63,697 nt of DNA, filler included, from Neolecta irregularis DAH-3 (GCA_001929475.1; 10 parts of 10 records of this genome joined end to end with filler, not necessarily neighbours in it); one strand, 5' to 3'; shown: positions 14,869 to 63,697, numbered from the whole stretch's first letter. The notes: generated from the letters alone by a model not told the origin. Program-made: numbers and translations.

Positions 14869-14968
14869 NNNNNNNNNNNNNNNNNNNNNNNNNNNNNNNN
14901 NNNNNNNNNNNNTTAATTAATTAANNNNNNNNNNNNNNNNNNNNNNNNNNNNNNNNNNNNNNNNNNNN
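14869..14968. other. Artificial contig linker; also at 25165-25264, 44931-45030, 48589-48688, 50229-50328, 53108-53207, 55114-55213, 57948-58047 and 62388-62487
   Basis: The same 100-nt N44-TTAATTAATTAA-N44 spacer (stops in all six frames) occurs nine times. Confidence 0.98.
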
Positions 14969-25164: not shown

Positions 25165-25494
25165 NNNNNNNNNNNNNNNNNNNNNNNNNNNNNNNNNNNN
25201 NNNNNNNNTTAATTAATTAANNNNNNNNNNNNNNNNNNNNNNNNNNNNNNNNNNNNNNNNNNNNTGCACTGCTCGCAGAATAATCAATATATCGTTTTGT
25301 ATGAATCAACCAGTTTTCACAAGTCTATTGGCGAATTCATCGTTATCAGCAAGACAATTCAGTATTTCTGTACGAAGCTCTAGCTCATTGTCTCGATAAA
25401 ATATTTAGCTAGTTTCATCAATTGGACATCAAGTCAGATAGGAATGCCGATCGACAAATAATATTTACTGTTCAGGTGAATGCANNNNNNNNNN

Positions 25495-43751: not shown

Positions 43752-45030
43752 TGCAAATACGAGCAAGGTGTATTTCAAATTCAGTCTAGAGCAGTTCAAT
43801 ATGGTGTTATTAGTAGTAATTCGGCCATTGGGCACAACGTTTTAAGTAAATCGGTAATTTTGACCCCAAGGGGTCCGGAGGGGGTGGAGGGGGTGGGGGT
43901 TCATTTGGATGTTATTTGTGTAGGCAACAACTCAGTCTTAAAATTCCGCATGTATAATCAACCTGCTTTCTAAAGTGACTTTTCTCCTTTCTGAGTTTTA
44001 GCGAACATGGCTAAATCAATAGGCCGAGGTATCAAGGGATCTAGCTTTGCAGTAAAAACTCGACATAATTCTTTCGAAGCATTACGTGTTTATGATTGAT
44101 GGATTCTTTGTAGTTAATAACCTGACAGGGAATGGAATTCTCTGTTGAAAACGCTCGTAAATAGAGATCTGTTTAGTTAATTATATCATCGCCTACGATC
44201 GGATGGCCATATGGAAGGTTGATCGGTTTGGTTGCATGAGGGGTGATCCGTATTATCTTAATACGAGAATTTCAATAGGAGTAGCGGATACCACGACCTA
44301 AGAAGCTCGAATAACATTTTCATCCTTATTTCCATGGCGGTACTCAGATAGGTCGTCACGAGTGTGTTGAACCTTCGCGAATACGTTCTCGGCTTTTGAA
44401 AGGTGTCAGAAATATTTGGGATCGTGGATTTTTCCCTGAAGAAGAATTAGAAAACATGCTTTCACTCACAAGATCAATCGTGGTTGCTGAAGGGATCAAC
44501 CATCAAGAAAATGAGTCTGGAGGTCATCGTGTGATTTCAAGAACCTATCAAACGCTATGACGTCATGCTCAGCAAGTAGTTTCGTGCCAAAATAGCGTAC
44601 TGTCTGATTAAATCACCTGGACGAACTGTCGTTATACTTAGATCAGCTGAAAGACGCTGTGTCTACTCTCTATAAATGGGACGATGAAGTAGTGAGACTA
44701 ATGAAATCAAAAGGGACCAGTAGTTAATCAAAACTAGACTGGCCAGTTTAATTATTCTGGTGCCCTCTAAATGAGCAATGTGACCAGTGCCTGATCAAGG
44801 GAGAAATTAGATTCATCACTGTTTCAGATTTTAAGTGAGCTTGTCGCAACAAACTCGTATACGAGGTATTTTCTGGTTATCTGATGGGTTTTCTCTTCCT
44901 TGATTATACTACAATGACGTGGCTCATTCTNNNNNNNNNNNNNNNNNNNNNNNNNNNNNNNNNNNNNNNNNNNNTTAATTAATTAANNNNNNNNNNNNNN
45001 NNNNNNNNNNNNNNNNNNNNNNNNNNNNNN

Positions 45031-46736: not shown

Positions 46737-48019
46737 TTACAAAAGTGGAGGGGGGTCGTTAGAGTTGTGCTGTGCATCTTGCATTGTTTGATCGGCAAGG
46801 GTATCTAATCCGCGATGCGGGATAAACCCCACATCTTTCTGCAACGTTTCATAATCTTGGCTGGCTTTTTCTAAGCCATCTTGTACCAATTTTTCTCGAA
46901 GCAGTAAATCAGCCATCTCTTGTGCTAATTCATTTGCTTGTCTAGTCAATTGAGCTTTCTTCTCTTGCATCGTAATCATCATTCCGCGTAATCGGCTCAA
47001 TGCACCCGCTAGTGTAGGTAGAGCCGTAACTATCGGCGGAACAGGAACACTTGATTTTCTTGATCTTCTAGTCGTTTCTCGAGTGGTGAAATCCCCTTTA
47101 CGGATTTGTGATTGTTCCCATTCTTGCATTGCCGAATTATCAGAGTCTGATTCTTCATATTCGTCCGCTTCGCTGAATTGTTAGTCACATAAACTTTATT
47201 GTTTTTTACATGGCGTCTCGCATTTCATCTTTCCGTTTCTTTGCCAATAGTTGTTCTCCATCTTTTCGAAGAATAATGCCATGGTCCACATACTCTTCCA
47301 ATCCATCAAGTCCATCCCCTCCATATTCATCTTCCTCCCTTACTAACCGTGGACCAGCCTTTTTACTCGAAACAATAAGATCTTGGTTTTCGCTTAGCGA
47401 GATAAAGTCCGCGCCATCTTTGGCCCGGCGAGCTCTTCGATCTTTAATCGCTTTTACTACTCCAGATTCTGGTATAGAAGATGATTGATTACCGAGCACC
47501 ATCCCGAATTTTCCTTCGATATCCAACGGGTCATCTTTTTCGCTGATCGCTGGCGATTGGTATTCTTTCGGAGTTGAGGGTGTCGATGTCTTGAGCTGGG
47601 AAAGATACGATTTGGTATATGTCGGACGCGATATCGAGGCTTGTTCAAAATTCGATGGAATATCCTCCTCCTCACCTACATTCTTTCGAGAGGATATATT
47701 CCTAGAAAGTATAGATCTCTTTGGTACAAAAGACCCTTCATCTTCCTGGTTTTATTAGAGCGTTTAGAATTACTAATATACCTCTGGTCCGCCAAAACTC
47801 AACCGTAATTTCGGTGAATTATTCGCTTTATGAGATTTCCTTTTCAAACTACTAGTTGCTATCCCTGTCAAAACTTGATGTGATAAAAAAATTACCAGGG
47901 ATATCGCTCGCGGGTAGTTGTATATTACCTTTGTGACTTGAAGAATCAGTCACATCTTCATCGCTTCCCGCCGCTCGTCTGATAATCTTGGGTTTAGACC
48001 TTCGCGACGAACCGATCAT
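46737..48019 (-). CDS. NTR2: Ntr2-like spliceosome disassembly factor (multi-exon)
   Basis: IPESGVVKAIKDRRARR..DFISL..RLVREEDE..YVD..EWEQSQIRKG and a C-terminal coiled coil. Confidence 0.72.
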
Positions 48020-51000
48020 TATAACAAACGCGATATATGCATTCTTCTCTACAACTCGTCGATTATTCCTCAACCGACGATGAAGACGACGATGATGTTG
48101 ATAAAAGTGAAGTTTCAACACGAAATAAATCAGATTTCATCATCACCCGCACAAATCTTCCTCCGCTACCCGAGTCCTTTCGAGATATTTATATTGGTAT
48201 TTAAACTGTCGTCGGAAATTTATTCATTACAGTTAATCCGCGTATTGGGGATGATCCCGCTCTACATAGCGGCCGAGTACGAACCCAGCCTCACGTAAAA
48301 GGACTTTGGCCTTCGCATGTCTATCTAGAAGGTAGAATCCCCCACAGCAACCGTTGATCCCAAAGTTGGTCCTTGTAGAATGCTTTATGACGCTCTGCAA
48401 GGGATTGTACAAACACTCGCCGAGTCGACACGAAATACAAGATGGAATTCGCTTCTCTGTTCAGAATTTGGCTCCAAAGTGCCCCTTCATATAAGTCTTT
48501 CAGCTCCAATGATGCTTCACACAAATCACAGAAAATCATTCCTTGATCAAATCACCAGAGTCACTACACGAGAAAAGTAATTATCTTGNNNNNNNNNNNN
48601 NNNNNNNNNNNNNNNNNNNNNNNNNNNNNNNNTTAATTAATTAANNNNNNNNNNNNNNNNNNNNNNNNNNNNNNNNNNNNNNNNNNNNCTTGGATAAAGT
48701 CGACCGCGGGAGATCATCCATACATGAGCTCGCCTGCTCGTATCGAAGTCATAGCAATTGCGGAAGTCGGTGGTTTCGTATCCTATTGGCTACAATTGTC
48801 GTTATTTCTTTTCCGCCACTTGCTCCATTGGTAAGATATATCCGGTAATGCCCCGGATATATCCTTACAACTTGGATGGAGTCGGACGCGCTCATGCACG
48901 AACGAGTAGGATGAAGAAGATCGGGAGTAGCAGCATTGTAAGACGAGGACCCAAGTAAGAACAGTGTTGGCAATACGCCCGTCTCCACCTCTCGCTCCTA
49001 TCTCGCCCGCTTCTCCATTCTTACCCGGCCGTCTCTCCTGCCTCGCACACCTATCTCGCCTTTCGTGGCTGCTCACCACCAGACCTTTAAGGATTAGGTT
49101 CAACAACTTACGCTTGCCGTCCGTCCGATGCACCCGCCAACTGTCCTCCAGCTGCTCCTCCTCCAGCCGCTGCGGTGCTGCCCCTGCGCGCCGAGTACTT
49201 CCCCTTCTGCTCCACGCAAAACACGTCCACCGGAAATCCGCATTCTCCGTCTTCCAGTCCGTCGGCGCCTGCTCCCAGACCTGCATGAGGCCTTTGCGAT
49301 CATCCTGCTGGTGCTACACCCTGTTTCCCGCCCTGCGCAGCCCGTTTGAGATTGCTCCCGGCCATGTCCCGGCTATCCCTCAGACAGGTGCGGCAACAAC
49401 GAGACCAATGCCTTTAACTATGTCCAGGTCGGCCATGCCACAGGAACCGCTCTCCCAACACACACCTTCTCCCCGAGGCCCCCCGCCCAGACCTCCATCC
49501 CGTCGCCTCTCCCACGCCCGTCCTCTGCTACACCAACACCAACACCAACCCCGTTTATAATACTATCTTAATTCATTCATGTTTGCATTCCTTTGTCTTT
49601 GTGTCTAAAGATCACTTCAAACAAGGAACAAGATCAGTCGTACTCGTACATTTTAAAATATTCGTCATTGTTTTCTCAATGTTCGTGGGAAGACTTTTGT
49701 TTGTCAATAGCCGACAACCAAAGACACGATATAAGCAAGTAAGCAAGCAAGTCCGGCGGACAAAAATAAGCAAGTAAGCAAGTCCAAAATTTAGATTTGC
49801 TTGTTTGGACTTGAATAGACTTGACTGTTAAGACTTTTAATGAGACATTGAATATTTTCTAAATGTATCTACCAAAAATTATCTCCGTTATCCCAAGAGA
49901 TATCCATTATATTGAAATGTCAATTCCAATTACCAATATGGATTCCAGCAATCTTACCACAGCAAATTTTTCAATTTTTCAGGACCGGACACCTTCAATA
50001 TCACTCAGCGAGATTGATATTGATATATCAACCCCTGGTCCTGAACTTAATTATGATGACGACAAGAGCAGTAGTTCTACATCCCTACCTAAAACGATTT
50101 TGCATTAATGCTTGGAAAGAAAATCCCGATTGGCTTGTTTATAACAATGCTTCCTTTAAAATACTTTGGCAGGAGTATAAGAATCACCTGGGCGTTGGGA
50201 TAATATCACCAAAACCAAAGCCTTGCAGNNNNNNNNNNNNNNNNNNNNNNNNNNNNNNNNNNNNNNNNNNNNTTAATTAATTAANNNNNNNNNNNNNNNN
50301 NNNNNNNNNNNNNNNNNNNNNNNNNNNNCCCTGCCAATATTTGAATCCCATGGTAGACAACCTCCTTCCATAGGCAACCTCTCACTCGCTCCCTGTTGAC
50401 ATCCTACTGCTCTGGGTCGCGCTACTCCGTTCAAGGCCTGAAATTGTCGGGTCATCTGAGAGCAGTCTCCCAGATTAATTGCGAGGTAAAACAGCTTTCA
50501 TATTAAAATTGCTAAGAATATTTGCTGAAAACCCGTTACAGAGTAGCCTCGGTGGATATGTACTGTTGTAAGCTATGCGCTTAGAAGTACGACAAGACCA
50601 AATGTTATAACTAGCCCAAGTATCGTACTTACAAGGGACAGTTTAATCCCCCCGTCAAGCCACCATACCGTATTGGTAAGGTATTTCCTTACAACCTATA
50701 TAACCTTTTGAGATTGTTTTATTGCTATTGCAAAACGCGTCCTGAAATAAAATGATCAAACAGNNNNNNNNNNAGTCTAATCCCCCGTCAAGCCACCATA
50801 CCGTATTGGTAAGATATACCCATATAACCTTTTGAGATTGTTTTATTGCTATTGCAAAACGCGTCCTGAAATAAAATGATCAAACAGAATTTTCATCTAG
50901 ATATCAAATCCCACCTCTAAACAGACTATCACAGCCCAATCTAGTGTAAAGATACTTGAAATAATTCAATCACCGTAATAATCAAATAAACTTGAGGTTC

Positions 51001-51222: not shown

Positions 51223-52539
51223 TTAAGAGGGGACAGTAAATATGGAAGCGGGGTGTTCAGCTAGAGCAGCTGAGAGTTGGTCCTGAGTGATGGTATCGCC
51301 AATGACAAATGAGTCGTCTAGCGCGAGGATATCGATTGTATGAGCGGCAGATTTGAAGTAAACAAGGAACTTTTTAGGAGTTTGAACTGGTCGTGCAATC
51401 CAGTCTGGGCTACCACCTCCTCCTGAGATTTTGCCGTTGGTTGAGGCACCGCCTTGAGCAATGTGGAGGTGGGAGGTGCACCTTTCGTTACCCGGATCGA
51501 GGACTTCGAGAATATCGAATTCGCCACAACCTGTGTCCCAGCACGAGCTTGGGCTGTACTGGCCGCAGTCTGCGATACGCGAGTTTAGCATCCAGAAGGC
51601 GGGCATGTCGTTGTTGATGGGGGAGTTTACATTGTCGTGGGGCATCAAGAGTTCAACGATGAAGATGGAATCCTCAGGCTTGAAGCCGTCTAAATTGTGA
51701 GAAGGGAATGAAGGGGAATTGGTACGGTAAGCGACTTCAGGGCCACCTCTGACAAATCCTGGACAATTATCGCCGCATTTCTGGCCCGTTTTGACGATGA
51801 TCTCGACGTTTGAGGGGATGACTGTTTGCTCGAGGGTTTGGGGGGCGGCAGCAGCACCATGGCCGTTGGCGCCCGCAAAACTGAGCGAGTTTCCAAAGGC
51901 GGAGGACCAAGTGCCCGAGCCATTGACGCCGCCCAAGTTGTTTAGGAAGACGATATTGTCAGCAGTCTGGGAGGCTGCGTTGTAGTAGCTTGATCTGCTC
52001 CAAGCGTTTCCAGAACAGGGGCCTGCGGTGGGGAGCGGCGTGGAGCTGTATGACACCGAAGCGGAGGACGTGGCGGTGACGCTGAAGCCTCTGGCGTTAT
52101 TGTGGTGATGGGAGTGTCTGCGGGCGCGGGTGTGGGAGGGGTCTCGCGTGGCAATGGAGCTCGAGAAGGCGGAGGCGTGGATGTCCAAGGAGGAGGTGGA
52201 GGCGGGCTGGCAAGACGCGGGGGAGTATACAGCGAGGGTGTTTAGCTGGAGCGGGCCGCGGAAATGCAGGCTGACTGTTTCGTTGTTGAGGAAGGGCGAG
52301 CCGGAGAAGGGGACCTGCATGCGGGACACGGCACCGGTGACCTCGTCCATGAAGGAGGGCGTCTGGAAGGAGCCCTCCTCCTGGTTGAAGTTTTCATAGG
52401 TGATGTGCTGTGTCTGGCTGCAGTAGGTATTGCCAGCAATAAACTGGCAGGCGGCGGCGGCGGCGGGGTCAGCGCGGACGGGTGCGGGCAGCAGCGCGAG
52501 AACGAGCGAGAGCGCGGAGACGGACGCAGAAAGGGCCAT
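51223..52539 (-). CDS. TOS1: Tos1/YJL171C-like secreted cell-wall glucanase-fold protein (DUF2403 plus DUF2401)
   Basis: Signal peptide, SLHFRGPLQL, IVFLNN, FGNSLSFA, DMPAFWMLN..QY..SCWDTGCGEFDILE; a 36-nt intron at 51690-51725 restores AYHGF. Confidence 0.88.
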   Translation of the reverse strand: MALSASVSALSLVLALLPAPVRADPAAAAACQFIAGNTYCSQTQHITYENFNQEEGSFQTPSFMDEVTGAVSRMQVPFSGSPFLNNETVSLHFRGPLQLNTLAVYSPASCQPASTSSLDIHASAFSSSIATRDPSHTRARRHSHHHNNARGFSVTATSSASVSYSSTPLPTAGPCSGNAWSRSSYYNAASQTADNIVFLNNLGGVNGSGTWSSAFGNSLSFAGANGHGAAAAPQTLEQTVIPSNVEIIVKTGQKCGDNCPGFVRGGPEVAYRTNSPSFPSHNLDGFKPEDSIFIVELLMPHDNVNSPINNDMPAFWMLNSRIADCGQYSPSSCWDTGCGEFDILEVLDPGNERCTSHLHIAQGGASTNGKISGGGGSPDWIARPVQTPKKFLVYFKSAAHTIDILALDDSFVIGDTITQDQLSAALAEHPASIFTVPS

Positions 52540-53010
52540 GGCGGGCGGGCGAGCAAGGAGAGACGCGGGTGGGACGCAGGGCAGCGGCAGGGGCGGCGGC
52601 GGCAGGGGTTAAATACAGCTCAGGGGTAGAGAGTGCGCGCTAGTGGCAGCCAAGATCCGGCTTGGAAGGAGCGAGGGTGTGGCGGCGGAGTAAGGAGCGG
52701 AGAGCGGGCGGTGCTTTTTTGGTCCTCTCGCTGGGGAACCGGCGCGCTTTATAGCCAGGTCACCTTCGTGTGACTGGCGCGCGCCCGTGTGTTCCTGTGC
52801 CACCCCAGCGCCTGCGACGCGCGCGACGTGCCCGCGGTGCTCCGCACGCTACCCAGCCGCCCCCGCGCGCTGTTTCCCGCCCTGCGCAGCCCGTTGGATG
52901 ATTGCTCCCCGCCTTGTCCCGGCTACCCCTCAGCCTTTAGCCATTAGACCTCTCCTCCCGTCGCCTCTCCCACGCGCCTCCCCTCCGCTCCGCTACCCCA
53001 ACACCGACTC

Positions 53011-53107: not shown

Positions 53108-53278
53108 NNNNNNNNNNNNNNNNNNNNNNNNNNNNNNNNNNNNNNNNNNNNTTAATTAATTAANNNNNNNNNNNNNNNNNNNNNNNNNNNNNNNNNNNNN
53201 NNNNNNNCGGCCCAGTCGGCGCCTCTTCACTATATTCACCCATCCGCCGTGTCCATCACATTCTATCCTCGAGAAGAC

Positions 53279-54122
<844 letters not shown>

Positions 54123-55213
54123 GTTGTGCGAGGGATGAATTCATTTTCCGCCTTGTGATATCGTTTATGATAGTTCCCTTCTTTAGGCTTCCGAGTATTG
54201 GAAATACATCTGTTCTGATTTCGTATCAAGGTGTTTGTTATCCCTTCTTTCTGAAACCTGTGCGGCATGGGTTTCAAAAGATCTTGATGGCATTTGCACA
54301 TGACGATTGTGATCCCCCTTTTCACTTTTCTCGGCCTACTCTTTTTTATGGTTTACGGATCTCACCTACGATCCATTTGCTAATCGTCATATCTGGCCCT
54401 CTGGACGTCCACTGTGTCTAACATACTGCTCGGCCAGGGAATAATCAATCAACCTATCGCGTTAGTAAAACTAGCTTGATGGAGCTCATTCTCCAATTGA
54501 TGTAGACCAGACTCAGTGAAAGAATTTATATTCGTCATTTAGGGAATGCAAACCTTAAAAATATCTTGAACATGACCAAATTTGTAAATATGGAACGATT
54601 CTTCTAGTCATCGCAGAGCAAATTTCGAAACCAAGTTGCGAAGACTAATGCACTGCCACTATGAGTGTAATTAGGAAAGGCGCAGGGGCAAGTCAAAATA
54701 AAATAAAATGATTTCTATGTGGCCATTTCTTTCGTTGGTGAAGTATGCTTCACATACTAACAAAGCTCACTCGAATCATCCTGATTACCGTGTCACGTGA
54801 TCACATGCAAATCTTGCGGGCATAACTTTGAGTAAATTGCAATCAATTCACAGTTGAACAACCAACTAACGTATTCAAACCAAACAAGGACTATCGGGAT
54901 CAGAATGTAAAGGCGGAACTAACTGTCTGCCAACAAATTCAATACAAGAAAGTCCATGGGGGACCTTTGAAGAAGCATCACATGGAAGAAACTGCCAAAC
55001 CGCTAACAGCCTGCCAGAGCACTCTCCAGGTGAGGAGTAAATGTAGACAGTGTTCCTAATAACTCAAATATAATAAACCAAATTCAAATATTTGCCAAAT
55101 AGCCAAATCAAATNNNNNNNNNNNNNNNNNNNNNNNNNNNNNNNNNNNNNNNNNNNNTTAATTAATTAANNNNNNNNNNNNNNNNNNNNNNNNNNNNNNN
55201 NNNNNNNNNNNNN

Positions 55214-57947: not shown

Positions 57948-58232
57948 NNNNNNNNNNNNNNNNNNNNNNNNNNNNNNNNNNNNNNNNNNNNTTAATTAAT
58001 TAANNNNNNNNNNNNNNNNNNNNNNNNNNNNNNNNNNNNNNNNNNNNATAGTTAGGTATGGTAGTTAGCAAGCTATTTAAATAAGGAAGGTCCCTTATTG
58101 ACATGTGCTTGTGCGACATCACATGTAACGTTGCACAACATTGTGTTAAGTTACACCACTATGTACCAAGTAACACTATGTAGGACAAAGATAATGAAAT
58201 GTAGTAAGCATATCTAGGGTCATATGCTTACA

Positions 58233-58521
58233 GCGAACCTCACTTCAAGTACCCATATGCCTAAAGGCATCTAGGTATTGTGTAATCCAATAATAAAAAT
58301 ATATAGGGGGATCCCTGAGCCTGGATCATTCTCTGAGACAGGGGCGCCTATGACACAGGGGCACCCCTGGGCCAGGGGTGGACTATTAGCCAGGGGCAGT
58401 ACCTGAGACAGGGGCCCACTATTAACCCGGGGCAATTCCTGAGACAGGGGGCCTATAGGATAGGGGCAGCTATGGCTATATAAGCCACTATAAGGAGGCT
58501 TAATTAGCCATCATCCTTACA
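58233..58521 (-). repeat. Left copy of a ~285-bp repeat (solo-LTR-like or long TIR), inverted relative to 61308-61592
   Basis: Its reverse complement aligns end to end with 61308-61592; starts TGTAAGG on the minus strand; internal GAGACAGGGG subrepeats. Confidence 0.85.
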
Positions 58522-58738
58522 AATATAAGGTCTTTGTTTAAGTGTTTACCACCACAGTACCTTAAATCTATGGTCTACTTTGACCAACCAGACCAAGCAA
58601 TCTTGTGGTCTAGACCAACCATACCAGAGGTCCTGGTCTGGTCAGTCTGGTTGATTAAGAATACTGCCTGCAAGCTCACCTATTCTCAAAATTTAATTTT
58701 TATATTTTTTTACTATTTCTAATTATTTTTATTATTAT

Positions 58739-60856
58739 TTACTCTTCTGGGGTAGTATCAATTGCTAGATGAATTGGATTAAATATACTGCTACCTGGTC
58801 CAACAGCTACTGGTGATTTAATTTGAAGTATATTTGCTATTTTGAAAAACTCTATGGTAATCTAAAAACTATAAGCCAATCAACTTTTAGGTTAAATGTA
58901 CTAAATTCTGTCTAGTTGCTCTTAGTGATTCCTTGATAGTCCAGTTTGTTTGGTGCCAATATCTTATTACAATTTCTATTGATAGATTTGGATTTATAAT
59001 ATTTGTTTGTATTTTTAAAATACCTTTGAAATGATTTGGATACTTTTGAAGGAATATAGTTAGATGTTCTTTTAGTTTGCTTATTTGCATAAAGGTTATA
59101 GGTGAACAAATTTGAGTAAATACTTCTCCCAGATTATGTGATTGTGTATAATTAATTACATTATACATCTGGATAAATGTATAGCTAATTGAAATATAAG
59201 TTCCATTAGTTTGTTGTATAATAATACTAAATAAGTTAATTTCTATAATATATCCTTGAAAAAAGTTTTCATTATAAATTTTATCATATGCCCATGGAGA
59301 ATGAATTGTTGTGATAAGCTCAGATTTATTAATTGCAATCATATCTCCTATACTTCAAAATTAATTATTTTTACTTTTCAACATAAATAATTTACCAAAA
59401 ATTTGTCATTTGAAATAGTTTTAAAATAGTTTGAGTAAAAGGATTAAGGAGTAATATAATAGTAATTAGAGTTAGTCCAAAATATATCAAATGCAGCCAA
59501 TTTGACTTAATCCAAGCTAAAAGAAGAAGGAAAGTTAGAATTATAATAATCTATAATTTTAGAAAAATCTTTTATTTTTCTTATCAACCATTAATCCTAT
59601 TGTAATATAGTAGATTAACTGTTTAAAAAGGGTTGGTATTTGATCAATATCCAAAAGAGTACAAAATTTATTATAGTTATTGCTAGTATATATCTTCAAA
59701 ATTAGAGACTAATAACCTCCATAGATCTATACTATAGAGTTAATAAAATCATCTTTAGTAGCAACAAGAAGTTCAATATTTTGTTCATAATACTTTAGTA
59801 ATTAATATAAGTCATTGAAAATTATAAATACATCAGTAAGATATTTAAAGACCCTGGAACAATTCTTTGGATTTGGAAAACAGTAAGTTAAATTTGGTGA
59901 AGAAAGAGTAATATTCCTAAATATAAGAAATAGATATTGTTAATTTGAAAATCAAATACCTTTGTCCTTGTTCTTGACAGAGACCAAGAAAGCAAAAAGA
60001 AGCAAATCTTTTTGCTCCTTCTTTTGTTTGAAGAAGTTTTTCTACTATTACTTGAGTTTTATTAATATTATTTAAGTTAAAAGTAGTTTCTTTTATATTG
60101 TAGTCTTGTTCCAATTCAATTAATAATTCTTTCAGTTTTCCTAAGTGATTGGGCATATATCTACTTTGTGAAAATTTCTTTTCAGATTGCTGTAACTGAA
60201 TATTAATATATAAGAAAATTTGAGTTAAAACTTGAATTTGGAAATAATAGTATACTAGTTCAACCTTTGAAGATCTCTTTTGAAATTTAAAAACCCTAGA
60301 AAACTTCAGAAATATATGTTAGAAAAGAAGCTAAATACTGAATATGTATAAATAATCTTAATAAAGTAGATAAAGTAAGAAGACATAATGCAATAAGTAC
60401 TTCTTTCTGATTTAAGAAAAAACTATATACCTTAGTTGAACCACCTAAATAAGTTGAAAAGAGAATTGAAATTTGTAATTCAGGATTTCTAACTATTCAG
60501 AACATATATATATAGGTTTATATTATATACCTTTGATATAATAATATTAAGTAGAATGCTAGGTACCAAATAGAGCATGCTAGTTGTATTCTTAAATTTT
60601 TGGCAATATATTTATATCTTTGTTGATAAGCATTGCCTTTCAAGGCCTTGCAAACAAGAAATGGAATAATAAAGGTTGTAAAAAGCATTATAAAAGGGAA
60701 AGAACTAACCAAGTAAATAAGTTTGAGTATTACCATAGCAGAATGATATTCTTCTAATTTATAGATTATTTTCTCATAGACTATATGCAAAGGAACTAAT
60801 AGAAGAAGAGGAATAAAATATTCAAGAATCCTACAAAATGAAAGGTAATACTGCAT
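58739..60856 (-). pseudogene. Degenerate MscS-like (Msy1/Msy2-type) mechanosensitive channel pseudogene
   Basis: N-terminal TM segments; IVEKLLQTKEGAKRFA, CFPNPKNCSRVF..ATKDDFINSIV*, GYIIEINLFSIIIQQTNG..INYTQS..ISKLKEHLTIFLQKYPNHF..YWHQTNW align by eye to the fungal MscS-like core; multiple stops; GT-AG introns retained. Confidence 0.65.
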
Positions 60857-61592
60857 ATGAAATTGCTTTCTAGATGTAGAGAATCAAAGAATCAAAGTGA
60901 GATAATTATCAATGTTATGATAATCTTACTAGAATTAAAAAACTAGTATATAGTATGGTGAGTATAAGGAGATTACTCTAGTGGTTAGTATGAATACAAT
61001 ATATAATCTAGTGGTGGAAGGTTATGGAAGGTAATTGAATAAGCTACTATATTATGTAACCACTAATTAGTGGCCTTATTGTATTATAAGTAGATAGGCT
61101 GACCTTGCTAGGAACCTTATCTTGATATAAGAGTACTAATGAATCAGGTATATAGAATAAAGGTCTTCACACTAGAGTACTGATGAGTTAGCCCTTCAAA
61201 GATATATGGTATCTCTAGACAGCTAGGATCCACCAAAGGTAACACAGGCCTGATCAGGTTATACAAGGAGTACTAGTGGATCTTGTGTAACACTCAAGGC
61301 TGTGTTGTGTAAGGATAATGGCTAACCAGGTTTCCTTACAGTGGCTTATATAGCCACAAGTACCCTTATCCTACTGGCTCCCCTGTCTCAGGAATTCCCC
61401 TGGTTAATAGTAGGCTCCTGTCTCAGGTACTACCCCTGGCTAATAGTCTGCCCCTTGCCCAGGGGTGCCCCTGTGTCATAGGTGCCCCTGTTTCAGAGAG
61501 TGATCCAGACTCAGGGATCCCCTATATATATTTATTATTAGATTACACAGTATCCAGATACCTCTAGGCATATGGGTACTTGGGAGTGAGGT

Positions 61593-62034
61593 CAGTGTTA
61601 GGGATGGACTGTGCCAGTGGCTTGGTCCTAGCACCCTTGGGCATTAATAGGAAGTGTGATCAGGGTAGTATTGGCAACAATATGAAAAGATATATCATAT
61701 ATTATATATTATGTAATATGATATATAGTCCTTTTGTATAATAATGTAACTATTTAATTTTTGTCACATCATATAAGATAAACTTTTTGATTGTGTGATA
61801 ATATTATAACATTTTTATACTACCAAAAACACATAGTTCATATTGTTTCTAACACAAGGTTACAAAATGAAAAAATATTATAGTATATCATAAAATACAA
61901 AAACTGATGTCAGATTTTCATATTGTTGCCAACACTGGATCAGGGGAGTTACCTAAGCTGCCTGTCTTCCAATTGTTAATTCAGGCCCATGGATATGATG
62001 CCTACGCTACTGGTACAGTCCATCCCCAACACTG
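61593..62034. mobile_element. hAT-family MITE (outer), 442 bp including a nested insert
   Basis: TIRs CAGTGTTAGGGATGGACTGTGCCAGT and ACTGGTACAGTCCATCCCCAACACTG; perfect 8-bp TSD AGTGAGGT at 61585-61592 and 62035-62042. Confidence 0.9.
61666..61937. mobile_element. hAT-family MITE (inner, nested), 272 bp
   Basis: TIRs TAGTATTGGCAACAATATGAAAA and TTTTCATATTGTTGCCAACACTG; perfect 8-bp TSD GATCAGGG at 61658-61665 and 61938-61945. Confidence 0.9.
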
Positions 62035-62241
62035 AGTGAGGTTCACTCAGCATGTCACATAATCTGAGATCAGGAGATGCTAGTTATGCACCTTAATATT
62101 GTCACTATTAATTAAGCAACCAAGCCAAGGAATAAGGTTGCTAATTAATAGATATTGCAAGTACCCAAAGGGATACTCACAAGATTTTTTACCAGACTCA
62201 CCAACATACCCCCAGAAGATAGAGGAACCCAACAGCAACTC

Positions 62242-62387
62242 CAGTGTTGGCAATAATATAAATAATACAATATTCCCAATATAAAAAGGTGAAAATATTA
62301 TCATGATATCAAAAAGTATATATTATATCATCACAATATATATTTAAAGGTCAAAATATTATCACAATATCAAAAATTCCACATTAT
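62242..62387. mobile_element. Left end of another hAT MITE related to the inner element (truncated by the linker)
   Basis: Begins CAGTGTTGGCAATAATATAAA, then AT-rich ATCACAATAT subrepeats like those of the inner MITE. Confidence 0.6.
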
Positions 62388-62706
62388 NNNNNNNNNNNNN
62401 NNNNNNNNNNNNNNNNNNNNNNNNNNNNNNNTTAATTAATTAANNNNNNNNNNNNNNNNNNNNNNNNNNNNNNNNNNNNNNNNNNNNAATAACATACTAT
62501 GTCTAACGGAAAAATGCTGGTAGTCTAGTAATAAGTCCCGAAATTAGGGGACCGGACATTTCAAAAAACTGCAAACGTGATGGAGATTAAATGGTCTGAG
62601 ATACGTGATCATGGCATCAAGANNNNNNNNNNATCTCTTCAACAGCATCAGTTCGTTCATCAAGTGCTCTACAAATTAGTCATTCTGAATTACTGANNNN
62701 NNNNNN

Positions 62707-63697
62707 TCTCTTCAACAGCATCAGTTCGTTCATCAAGTGCTCTACAAATTAGTCATTCTGAATTACTGAAAAATTTACCGTCTATCTGTAAGAGGTCTAC
62801 CCACCCATCCTCGTAGCAATCTCCTTCCAAACTTTGTAATGGTATGATCCAAAACCCAGAATAAACTCCCCCTGTCAGTAAAATCGGTTTGATTGCGGTA
62901 GATTTCGAGATTCGATATTGTGTTCCCATTCAATAACATACTATGTTTAACGGAAAAATGCTGGTAGTCTAGTAATAAGTCCCGAAATTAGGGGACCGGG
63001 CATTTCAAAAAACTGCAAACGTGATGGAGATTAAATGGTCTGAGATACGTGATCATGGCATCAAGACATACACTGCAGAGTCAGAAAAGATGGCACCAAG
63101 GTAGCATTTACAGGATACTTTCTGGGTACTCCAGGATTGTTTCGTTTGAATCTCGAATTAATTGAACTCCCAGTTATCAAGTTGTACCTTTATTATAAGA
63201 CATTTGACTGGATTCTTCATCTGTGTTGGTGAAGAATTCCGAAACTCGTTTGACAGCTTCTTCAAATGAGGCAGGGTTTTCAATTCGCTCAAGTCTGACC
63301 TGATCCCCCAAACAGCTTCTTAAAAATTAGAATTATTCTGGAACCCTACATACGAGTTTTCAACGAGCTGTTTAACCAATTTTTCTGTCGTATGAGATAG
63401 AATTCCAAGCGTAATCATTTCACACGGCTGTAAATGCAAAAGACGTGTCTCCAATTCCGATCTCAGAAAACCATCTTCAAATTCATCAAATATGATATCC
63501 CCTGTAGAGGGCTGAACAGCCACAAACGAAATCATGACCTTATCCGCCTTTGAAATTTCAAAGAGTGTCATTAAATAACCGGTTGTTGGAGCCAAGGATG
63601 TATCGTCGACAGACACATCATCGATTAGAGTTCCTTTCGTATATAAATTTGTTAGTTTTCGTTCGAAAAGCTTATTCTTGGTATCGCTCGAAGCCTT
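62707..63697 (-). CDS. MSH3: DNA mismatch-repair protein Msh3, internal fragment (62488-62696 are duplicated pieces)
   Basis: [89 protein letters not shown]. Confidence 0.9.

Follow-up and report, generated by a model that had tools for sequence, protein, structure and literature searches.

The 63,697-nucleotide stretch of DNA from Neolecta irregularis DAH-3 (GCA_001929475.1) that we analysed, here called the window, is made up of ten scaffolds of 1.2-19.7 kb apiece, chained by nine artificial 100-base linkers. One of these scaffolds (58048..62387; 4340 bases, 31.4% G+C, with linkers 57948-58047 and 62388-62487 at its ends) holds the whole of the locus considered here, namely a predicted MscS-like channel gene lying between two inverted copies (arms) of one repeat, together with several miniature inverted-repeat transposable elements (MITEs); the nine other scaffolds have 39-57% G+C. 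Given that the window strings together scaffolds with no relation to one another, arguments from neighbourhood, or from repeats that occur across a linker, are void. We regard the locus as an oddity of uncertain origin and not as a captured gene in decay.

The gene (58887..60856, minus strand) consists of eight exons, 60856-60531, 60488-60339, 60295-59960, 59916-59832, 59792-59733, 59693-59589, 59550-59396 and 59352-58887, and specifies a predicted protein of 560 residues, with a TAA stop at 58889-58887. The spliced frame, joined by hand and checked by script, has 1683 bases, i.e. 560 codons and the TAA, and contains no internal stop in the standard code. Its seven introns are all of the GT-AG type, measuring 42, 43, 43, 39, 39, 38 and 43 bases (mean 41), in agreement with the earlier description of an intron-containing gene copy between the arms, and every in-frame stop is confined to one of them; before joining, the stop-free minus-strand frames span 121, 66, 133, 45, 49, 52 and 155 codons. 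As a control, we determined the longest open chain that can be assembled when up to seven GT-AG introns, each of 36-45 bases, are allowed. This chain reaches 1712 bases on the real strand but only 293 on the opposite one; 100 block shuffles gave a median of 253 and did not exceed 503, and 12 other shuffles reached 653 at most. Since the spliced frame is unbroken and the chain extends far beyond those of the shuffles, the gene is apparently intact and not decaying, contrary to the initial annotation. A ciliate genetic code was considered and rejected: under it the frame overruns the TAA, and all 5 stops that would be re-read lie within the 43 residues past it. All 38 glutamine codons of the gene are CAA or CAG, and five of the seven introns are required under the standard and the ciliate code alike.

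The introns also match the mini-intron style of the host in length and 5' ends, as far as can be read from the sequences. They begin with GTATAT, GTATTT (in three introns), GTATAG, GTTGAT and GTAAAT, and several of them have a CTAA-type motif ~7 bases ahead of the AG. For comparison, introns were read by hand in two conserved genes on other scaffolds, encoding NTR2 and a Rab-type GTPase, at 47169-47205 (minus strand) and 53519-53560, 53594-53632, 53827-53864 and 53947-53986 (plus strand; all coordinates counted by hand). These measure 37, 42, 39, 38 and 40 bases and begin with GTAAAA, GTATAT, GTATCT, GTTGGG and GTAATA. G at +5, which is usual in fungal introns, is found in none of the introns of either set. 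An automatic harvest of host introns proved unusable, as an unrestricted splice-chain search threads DNA of normal G+C with up to 73 'introns'; counts of host-intron motifs gave a weak enrichment of GTATGT/GTATAT, and a search for pairs of open reading frames returned ambiguous candidates. The available text of the genome paper, including its supplementary file 1, gives 4.3 introns per gene with a mean length of 42 bp (PMC5309816).

Three sources point, if weakly, to a place for the predicted protein in the MscS superfamily, an assignment that holds at the profile level only. First, the exon-8 frame matches the MscS beta-domain profile PF00924 (MS_channel_2nd; 59145..59351, minus strand, residues 2-70) with an E-value of 2.6e-4 and 21.5 bits, where the curated cut-off of 20.2 is only just exceeded, a match that had been set beforehand as a test of the channel identity. 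Second, of the 30 nearest clusters by ESM Atlas language-model features, 15 belong to the PF00924 set. Third, hhalign aligned the C-terminal 230 residues with six E. coli MscS-family paralogues over 76 columns, the register being that expected (P 0.0013), at a probability of 17.9% as against at most 0.6% across 40 shuffles. By hydropathy, residues 5-162 contain hydrophobic segments and are followed by a hydrophilic loop of ~175 residues (163-339) and a further hydrophobic stretch (340-401) directly ahead of the beta-domain match at about residue 407, where a pore-lining membrane helix is expected. No pairwise relative was recovered, in keeping with the strong divergence from known fungal channels that had been anticipated. 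Neither a phmmer search of exon 8 against 1.84 billion representative proteins nor a word-index search of the same exon against longer proteins (224 candidates) gave a match at an E-value of 0.001 or better; a PDB search returned a single unrelated chain (E 0.72); viral contigs yielded 3 pattern matches, none of them confirmed; and Pfam searches with the five other exon frames returned nothing relevant. A single-sequence AlphaFold2 model of exon 8 (mean pLDDT 33.8) was too poor for a fold search. The proposal of a captured or duplicated host gene is unsupported, as these protein searches brought up neither a paralogue nor any other relative for the last exon. We assign the protein, very diverged as it is, to the MscS superfamily and do not file it as an orthologue of Msy1/2.

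According to the text available to us of an account of fungal MscS-like proteins, which include Msy1 and Msy2 of fission yeast and MscA and MscB of Aspergillus nidulans (PMC9367656), the candidate shares with these channels the beta-domain match, extra N-terminal membrane helices (predicted in the candidate from hydropathy), a hydrophobic pair right before the beta domain, and a nuclear gene with introns. Its predicted layout is similar to the long form of fungi and plants that is described for Msy1/2 and MscA/B. It differs from them in size, with 560 residues as against 840-1011, in the 25% G+C of its gene, and in that the fungal proteins are described as more than 22% identical to E. coli MscS, whereas the candidate has no detectable pairwise similarity (PMC9367656). 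A literature search found no paper linking Neolecta with mechanosensitive channels.

The gene occupies an A+T-rich island of 25.2% G+C (58651..61100), which includes ~240 bases on each side of it and has sharp borders. Elsewhere on the scaffold the spacers have 40-43%, the arms 48-50% and the outer flanks 36-39% G+C, and a 200-base sliding scan over the 59 kb of the other scaffolds encountered a single window below 30%. The coding sequence itself has 25.4% G+C, with 33, 26 and 17% at the first, second and third codon positions (GC1, GC2 and GC3); in ten reading frames from the other scaffolds GC3 ranges over 36-68% and GC1 over 43-56%. Among the latter frames a Tos1-type gene (51223-52608, minus strand) stands out, having a GC3 of 68% as against 36-44% in the nine other host frames; host codon composition therefore varies widely, in the G+C-rich direction too.

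The inverted repeat of ~285 bp around the gene was confirmed by BLASTN, which aligned 58237-58521 with 61592-61308 over 287 columns at 87.1% identity (E 1e-93). Comparing the two arms, we count 27 transitions and 5 transversions next to 242 columns that are identical and 3 with a gap, and the 13% divergence with its 27:5 transition bias indicates that the arms are old. The left arm (58225..58521, minus strand, 50.5% G+C; its limit near 58225 was read from the alignment) runs from TGTAAGG to AGCA. The main part of the right arm (61308..61592, plus strand, 48.1% G+C) likewise starts with TGTAAGG, so that the inner ends of both arms (58521, minus strand; 61308, plus strand) are identical in this motif, as had been noted initially. 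Past a MITE inserted near its outer end, the right arm resumes for ~10 bases (62043..62052, plus strand) up to an AGCA, as read by eye, and homology then ends; hence the arm unit has ~295 bases and TG...CA ends. These ends, present in both arms (the outer one read by eye), are a feature of solo long terminal repeats (LTRs). No homology extends past the outer ends, where the local alignment score of 17 falls below the shuffle mean of 18.3. The left arm contains 3.3 copies of a 36-base tandem sub-repeat (58333..58450; 75% matches and a score of 120 in Tandem Repeats Finder), and a corresponding stretch is found in the right arm. BLASTN found no third copy of the arm in the window, and a 25-base stretch of it had no exact match in metagenome contigs. 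For all their 13% divergence, both arms also retain open frames of 79-82 codons that run from the inner to the outer end (58271-58510, minus strand; 61319-61567, plus strand); neither these nor the other frames of arms and flanks match Pfam, and they are probably a by-product of the G+C-rich sub-repeats, whose 36 bases equal 12 codons. Rfam gave no match, and a tRNA scan found no tRNA gene and hence no sign of a tRNA-derived short interspersed nuclear element. Neither a circular molecule nor an assembly artefact of hairpin type accounts for the scaffold: its ends have no sequence in common, which rules out the former, and a mismatch between the arms at 13% of positions speaks against the latter, which we reject.

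The insertion in the right arm is a hAT-like MITE of 442 bases (61593..62034), situated inside the outer end of the arm. Its 20-base terminal inverted repeats match at 19 of 20 positions, and the target sequence AGTGAGGT is perfectly duplicated, with its 8 bases standing at 61585-61592 on one side of the element and at 62035-62042 on the other. Nested in it is a second MITE of 272 bases and 21% G+C (61666..61937), whose termini, TAGTATTGGCAACAATAT and CAGTGTTGGCAACAATAT, match at 16 of 18 positions and which is flanked by the perfect 8-base duplication GATCAGGG at 61658-61665 and 61938-61945. A partial third copy, belonging to the family of the inner, A+T-rich MITE, starts with CAGTGTTGGCAATAATAT (62242..62387, plus strand) and is cut by the scaffold end; it forms part of the inverted-repeat pair I3 of our repeat scan. 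We take 8-base duplications and CAG-type termini to be traits of the hAT superfamily, and the superfamily call rests on both. The outer and inner elements resemble known hAT MITEs in being complete, small and devoid of a reading frame, with terminal repeats that are 18-20 bases long and 8-base duplications that are perfect, and in that one is nested in the other. An autonomous hAT transposase was not detected in the window, none of 53 scanned reading frames of the other scaffolds matching a transposase family; the 20-base MITE end, further, had no exact match in metagenome contigs. All 14 bases of the A+T-rich MITE terminus CAGTGTTGGCAATA are found again, without a mismatch, at 48962-48975, on a 1.5-kb scaffold of normal G+C without a Pfam match. 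By our estimate a chance 9-mer seed is expected 0.4 times in the window, and five extra matching bases have a chance of ~1/1000; the match may mark where a larger element of the hAT family begins that extends beyond the scaffold. On the 3' side of the gene, the spacer 58522..58700 (minus strand) contains nested short inverted repeats of the form CAACCAGAC.../...GTCTGGTTG, because of which it folds strongly as a single strand (-28.2 kcal/mol against a shuffle mean of -16.3; z -3.8; equalled by 0 of 200 shuffles). It could be a small element or a terminator-like structure.

In interpreting these features we tentatively prefer, as an account whose chance we put somewhat below even, the view that the arms are two old, independently inserted copies of a repeat around a native gene, and we favour it over the view that they bound a single cargo-carrying unit. 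The locus would then be resident nuclear DNA of the fungus, rich in repeats and assembled only as a 4.3-kb orphan scaffold. Its one intact gene would encode a very diverged MscS-like channel of the eukaryotic long form, spliced by way of host mini-introns, and would presumably be expressed and work as a channel. The arms would be copies of a dispersed, solo-LTR-like repeat of ~295 bases with TG...CA ends that came to lie in opposite orientation around the gene by chance; subsequently, the hAT-like MITE would have inserted into the right arm, the second MITE into the first, and the third at the scaffold end. That the locus is native to the fungus is, in our judgement, probable, and we hold this part of the account with good confidence. 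It is favoured because the introns of 38-43 bases match both the 42-bp host mean and the host introns read by hand, because CAGTGTTGGCAATA is common to this locus and a scaffold of normal G+C, and because A+T richness within the scaffold is highest in the coding block. In A+T-rich genomes coding DNA is not normally the most A+T-rich part, the reverse of what is seen here; the pattern fits a host of normal G+C. With solo LTRs the arms have in common their length of ~295 bases, TG...CA ends, tandem sub-repeats and the state of old, diverged copies; unlike solo LTRs, neither is flanked by a matching duplication of 4-6 bases.

Several observations weigh against parts of this account. The bases bordering the right arm are TGTTG and TGTCA and those bordering the left ATATT and TATGA, so that no clean 4-6-base duplication is present at either arm; such duplications may have decayed since insertion, and the solo-LTR reading remains unproven because clean ones are lacking. 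If two insertions came about by chance, there is no reason to expect the A+T-rich island to lie entirely between them, as it does. The locus scaffold is an outlier in composition at every level: GC3 is 16-24%, GC1 is 32-35%, and the ratio TpA/ApT is 1.05, as against 0.65-0.81 on the other nine scaffolds, and such values would fit foreign DNA. As to the channel identity, the signature printed as PNX2(phi)X4(phi)2XNX2R in the text available to us (PMC9367656) is kept at the middle N only, with S-Y in place of P-N and Q in place of R. In an hmmsearch with the profile of the six E. coli paralogues against 501 sequences, comprising the model protein and 500 shuffles of it, the protein ranked only 281st among the 475 reported and did not stand out from its shuffles. 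Finally, the string 'contamina' is absent from the main text and three supplements of the genome paper (PMC5309816). The cause of a gene-sized block of 25% G+C in a genome of ~44% G+C is, moreover, not explained by our preferred account.

The competing view that best survives, unlikely as we consider it, is that the arms are long terminal inverted repeats bounding a single mobile unit (foldback, Mutator-like element (MULE), Pack-type or a composite of two repeat copies) with the channel gene as its cargo. The same doubtful standing attaches to its corollary that the A+T-rich interior has a history unlike that of the DNA outside. Such a unit would agree with the containment of the island wholly inside the arms, the DNA outside having 36-39% G+C, and with arms of ~295 bases bearing 36-base tandem sub-repeats, which are reminiscent of foldback ends. 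Just beyond the two outer ends, furthermore, lies the sole direct repeat around the whole unit, the 4-base GTCA at 58219-58222 and 62054-62057 (read by eye); as a target duplication it is weak evidence, since a 4-base match with freedom in the choice of boundary arises by chance in ~1/30 of cases by our estimate, which is not negligible. Against a cargo unit stand the 13% divergence of the arms, the absence of a second copy in the window and of exact matches in metagenome contigs, and the absence of a transposase. Pack-MULEs, other Pack-type elements and foldback elements, known from plants and Drosophila, carry gene fragments, occur in several copies and have clear duplications of 9-11 bases. 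The locus is like them in having long inverted ends around a host-like gene with introns, and unlike them in that the gene is whole, complete and intact, only one copy is known, and GTCA is the only candidate duplication.

Less probable still is that the scaffold is a contaminant, derived from another eukaryote with A+T-rich coding DNA, an inhabitant of the interior or surface of the wild fruiting bodies whose sequence was assembled together with that of the fungus. Overall G+C, G+C by codon position and TpA/ApT are all outlying, and the last exon is without a relative among 1.8 billion representative proteins; further, the material was wild, and no decontamination step is described in the portions of the genome paper that were searched (PMC5309816). 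Set against this are introns of 38-43 bases of which 5 of 7 start with GTAT and none has G at +5, a match to the host's introns in length and 5' ends, non-coding flanks that exceed the coding DNA in G+C, and the 14-base MITE terminus shared with a scaffold of normal G+C. Those common soil ciliates in which TAA and TAG are read as glutamine are excluded as a source by the use of the standard code.

A more speculative reading, which we rate as rather improbable, would have the two arms and the gene together form a eukaryotic, mobile cargo element that brought a complete, working and compositionally foreign channel gene into the genome of the fungus, with the sharply bounded 25% G+C island as the footprint of the transfer. 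In a variant of it, a mutation process of the fungus acting on the scale of a gene, driving the composition towards A+T without targeting CpA and survivable under selection, would have produced the island.

There is, in our estimation, only a small chance that the arms were born together as an inverted segmental duplication around the gene. Just two copies are seen, and they lie at similar distances from the island (130 and 208 bases), as such an origin would have it; the TG...CA ends and the sub-repeats suggest a discrete element instead, and the homology is abrupt at both ends.

The possibility that a duplicated or captured host channel gene has decayed by C-to-T mutation resembling repeat-induced point mutation (RIP) is very remote, and is largely refuted by the intact frame. 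RIP is commonly indicated by TpA/ApT above 0.89 together with (CpA+TpG)/(ApC+GpT) below 1.03, and by stop codons that arise from CAA, CAG or TGG. The very low G+C, a TpA/ApT of 1.02 in the gene, the transition bias of the arm divergence and the lengthening of some frames when TAA/TAG are read as glutamine lend it some support, but the second index is 1.17, i.e. CpA is not depleted, 38 CAA/CAG codons remain and there is no internal stop, on which grounds we reject classical RIP as the source of the A+T richness. The shift at all three codon positions, too, suggests long-term evolution and not a burst. A literature search on Neolecta and RIP found nothing relevant; a survey, in the text available to us, reports no RIP in three other Taphrinomycotina, Neolecta itself lying outside its coverage (PMC7882544). 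Where RIP spreads out of repeats, the repeats would be expected to have the higher A+T content; here, on the contrary, it is the unique gene that surpasses the repeated arms in A+T. In this the locus departs from the A+T-rich isochores of Leptosphaeria maculans, whose A+T shift stems from RIP spreading out of repeats: here the repeats are higher in G+C than the gene and CpA is undepleted, although in both cases an intact, fast-diverging gene lies in repeat-rich, A+T-shifted DNA.

The source assembly, as described in the available text of the genome paper, was made with Velvet from fruiting bodies collected in the wild, and represents a genome of 14.5 Mb with 44% G+C and 12.8% repeats (PMC5309816). 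Sampled words of the stretch were found at a proportion of 0.84 in run X1 and 0.15 in run X2, with no RNA run listed. The linkers carry TTAATTAATTAA with 44 N on either side, which occurs nine times in the window against 0.02 expected by motif count; besides the two that border the locus scaffold, they lie at 14869-14968, 25165-25264, 44931-45030, 48589-48688, 50229-50328, 53108-53207 and 55114-55213, and the repeat families D1, I2, I6 and I7 of the window consist of these linkers and nothing more. In addition to the NTR2 and Rab-type GTPase genes, the other scaffolds encode fungal or eukaryotic proteins including the Tos1 cell-wall protein, Vps3844, SF1, Sec3, Sin1/AVO1, TIP41, YL1, a PUF-repeat protein, GH3 and RasGAP. 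On the last scaffold (62488-63066) two copies of a 135-base stretch, 99% identical, are spaced 444 bases apart, and a unit of 73 bases stands in tandem over two 10-N gaps (62624-62769); these duplications look like a product of scaffolding or gap closing and not like biology.

What the locus means depends on its origin. If it is a contaminant, then unscreened foreign DNA has been flagged in a reference assembly that was made from wild fruiting bodies. If it is native, a compact fungal genome of ~44% G+C keeps an intact gene of 25% G+C, with a GC3 of 17%, in a block the size of that gene, and no standard process accounts for the block, neither classical RIP nor the overall base composition of a contaminant. 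In that case an extreme outlier would be added to the little-studied MscS-like channels of fungi.

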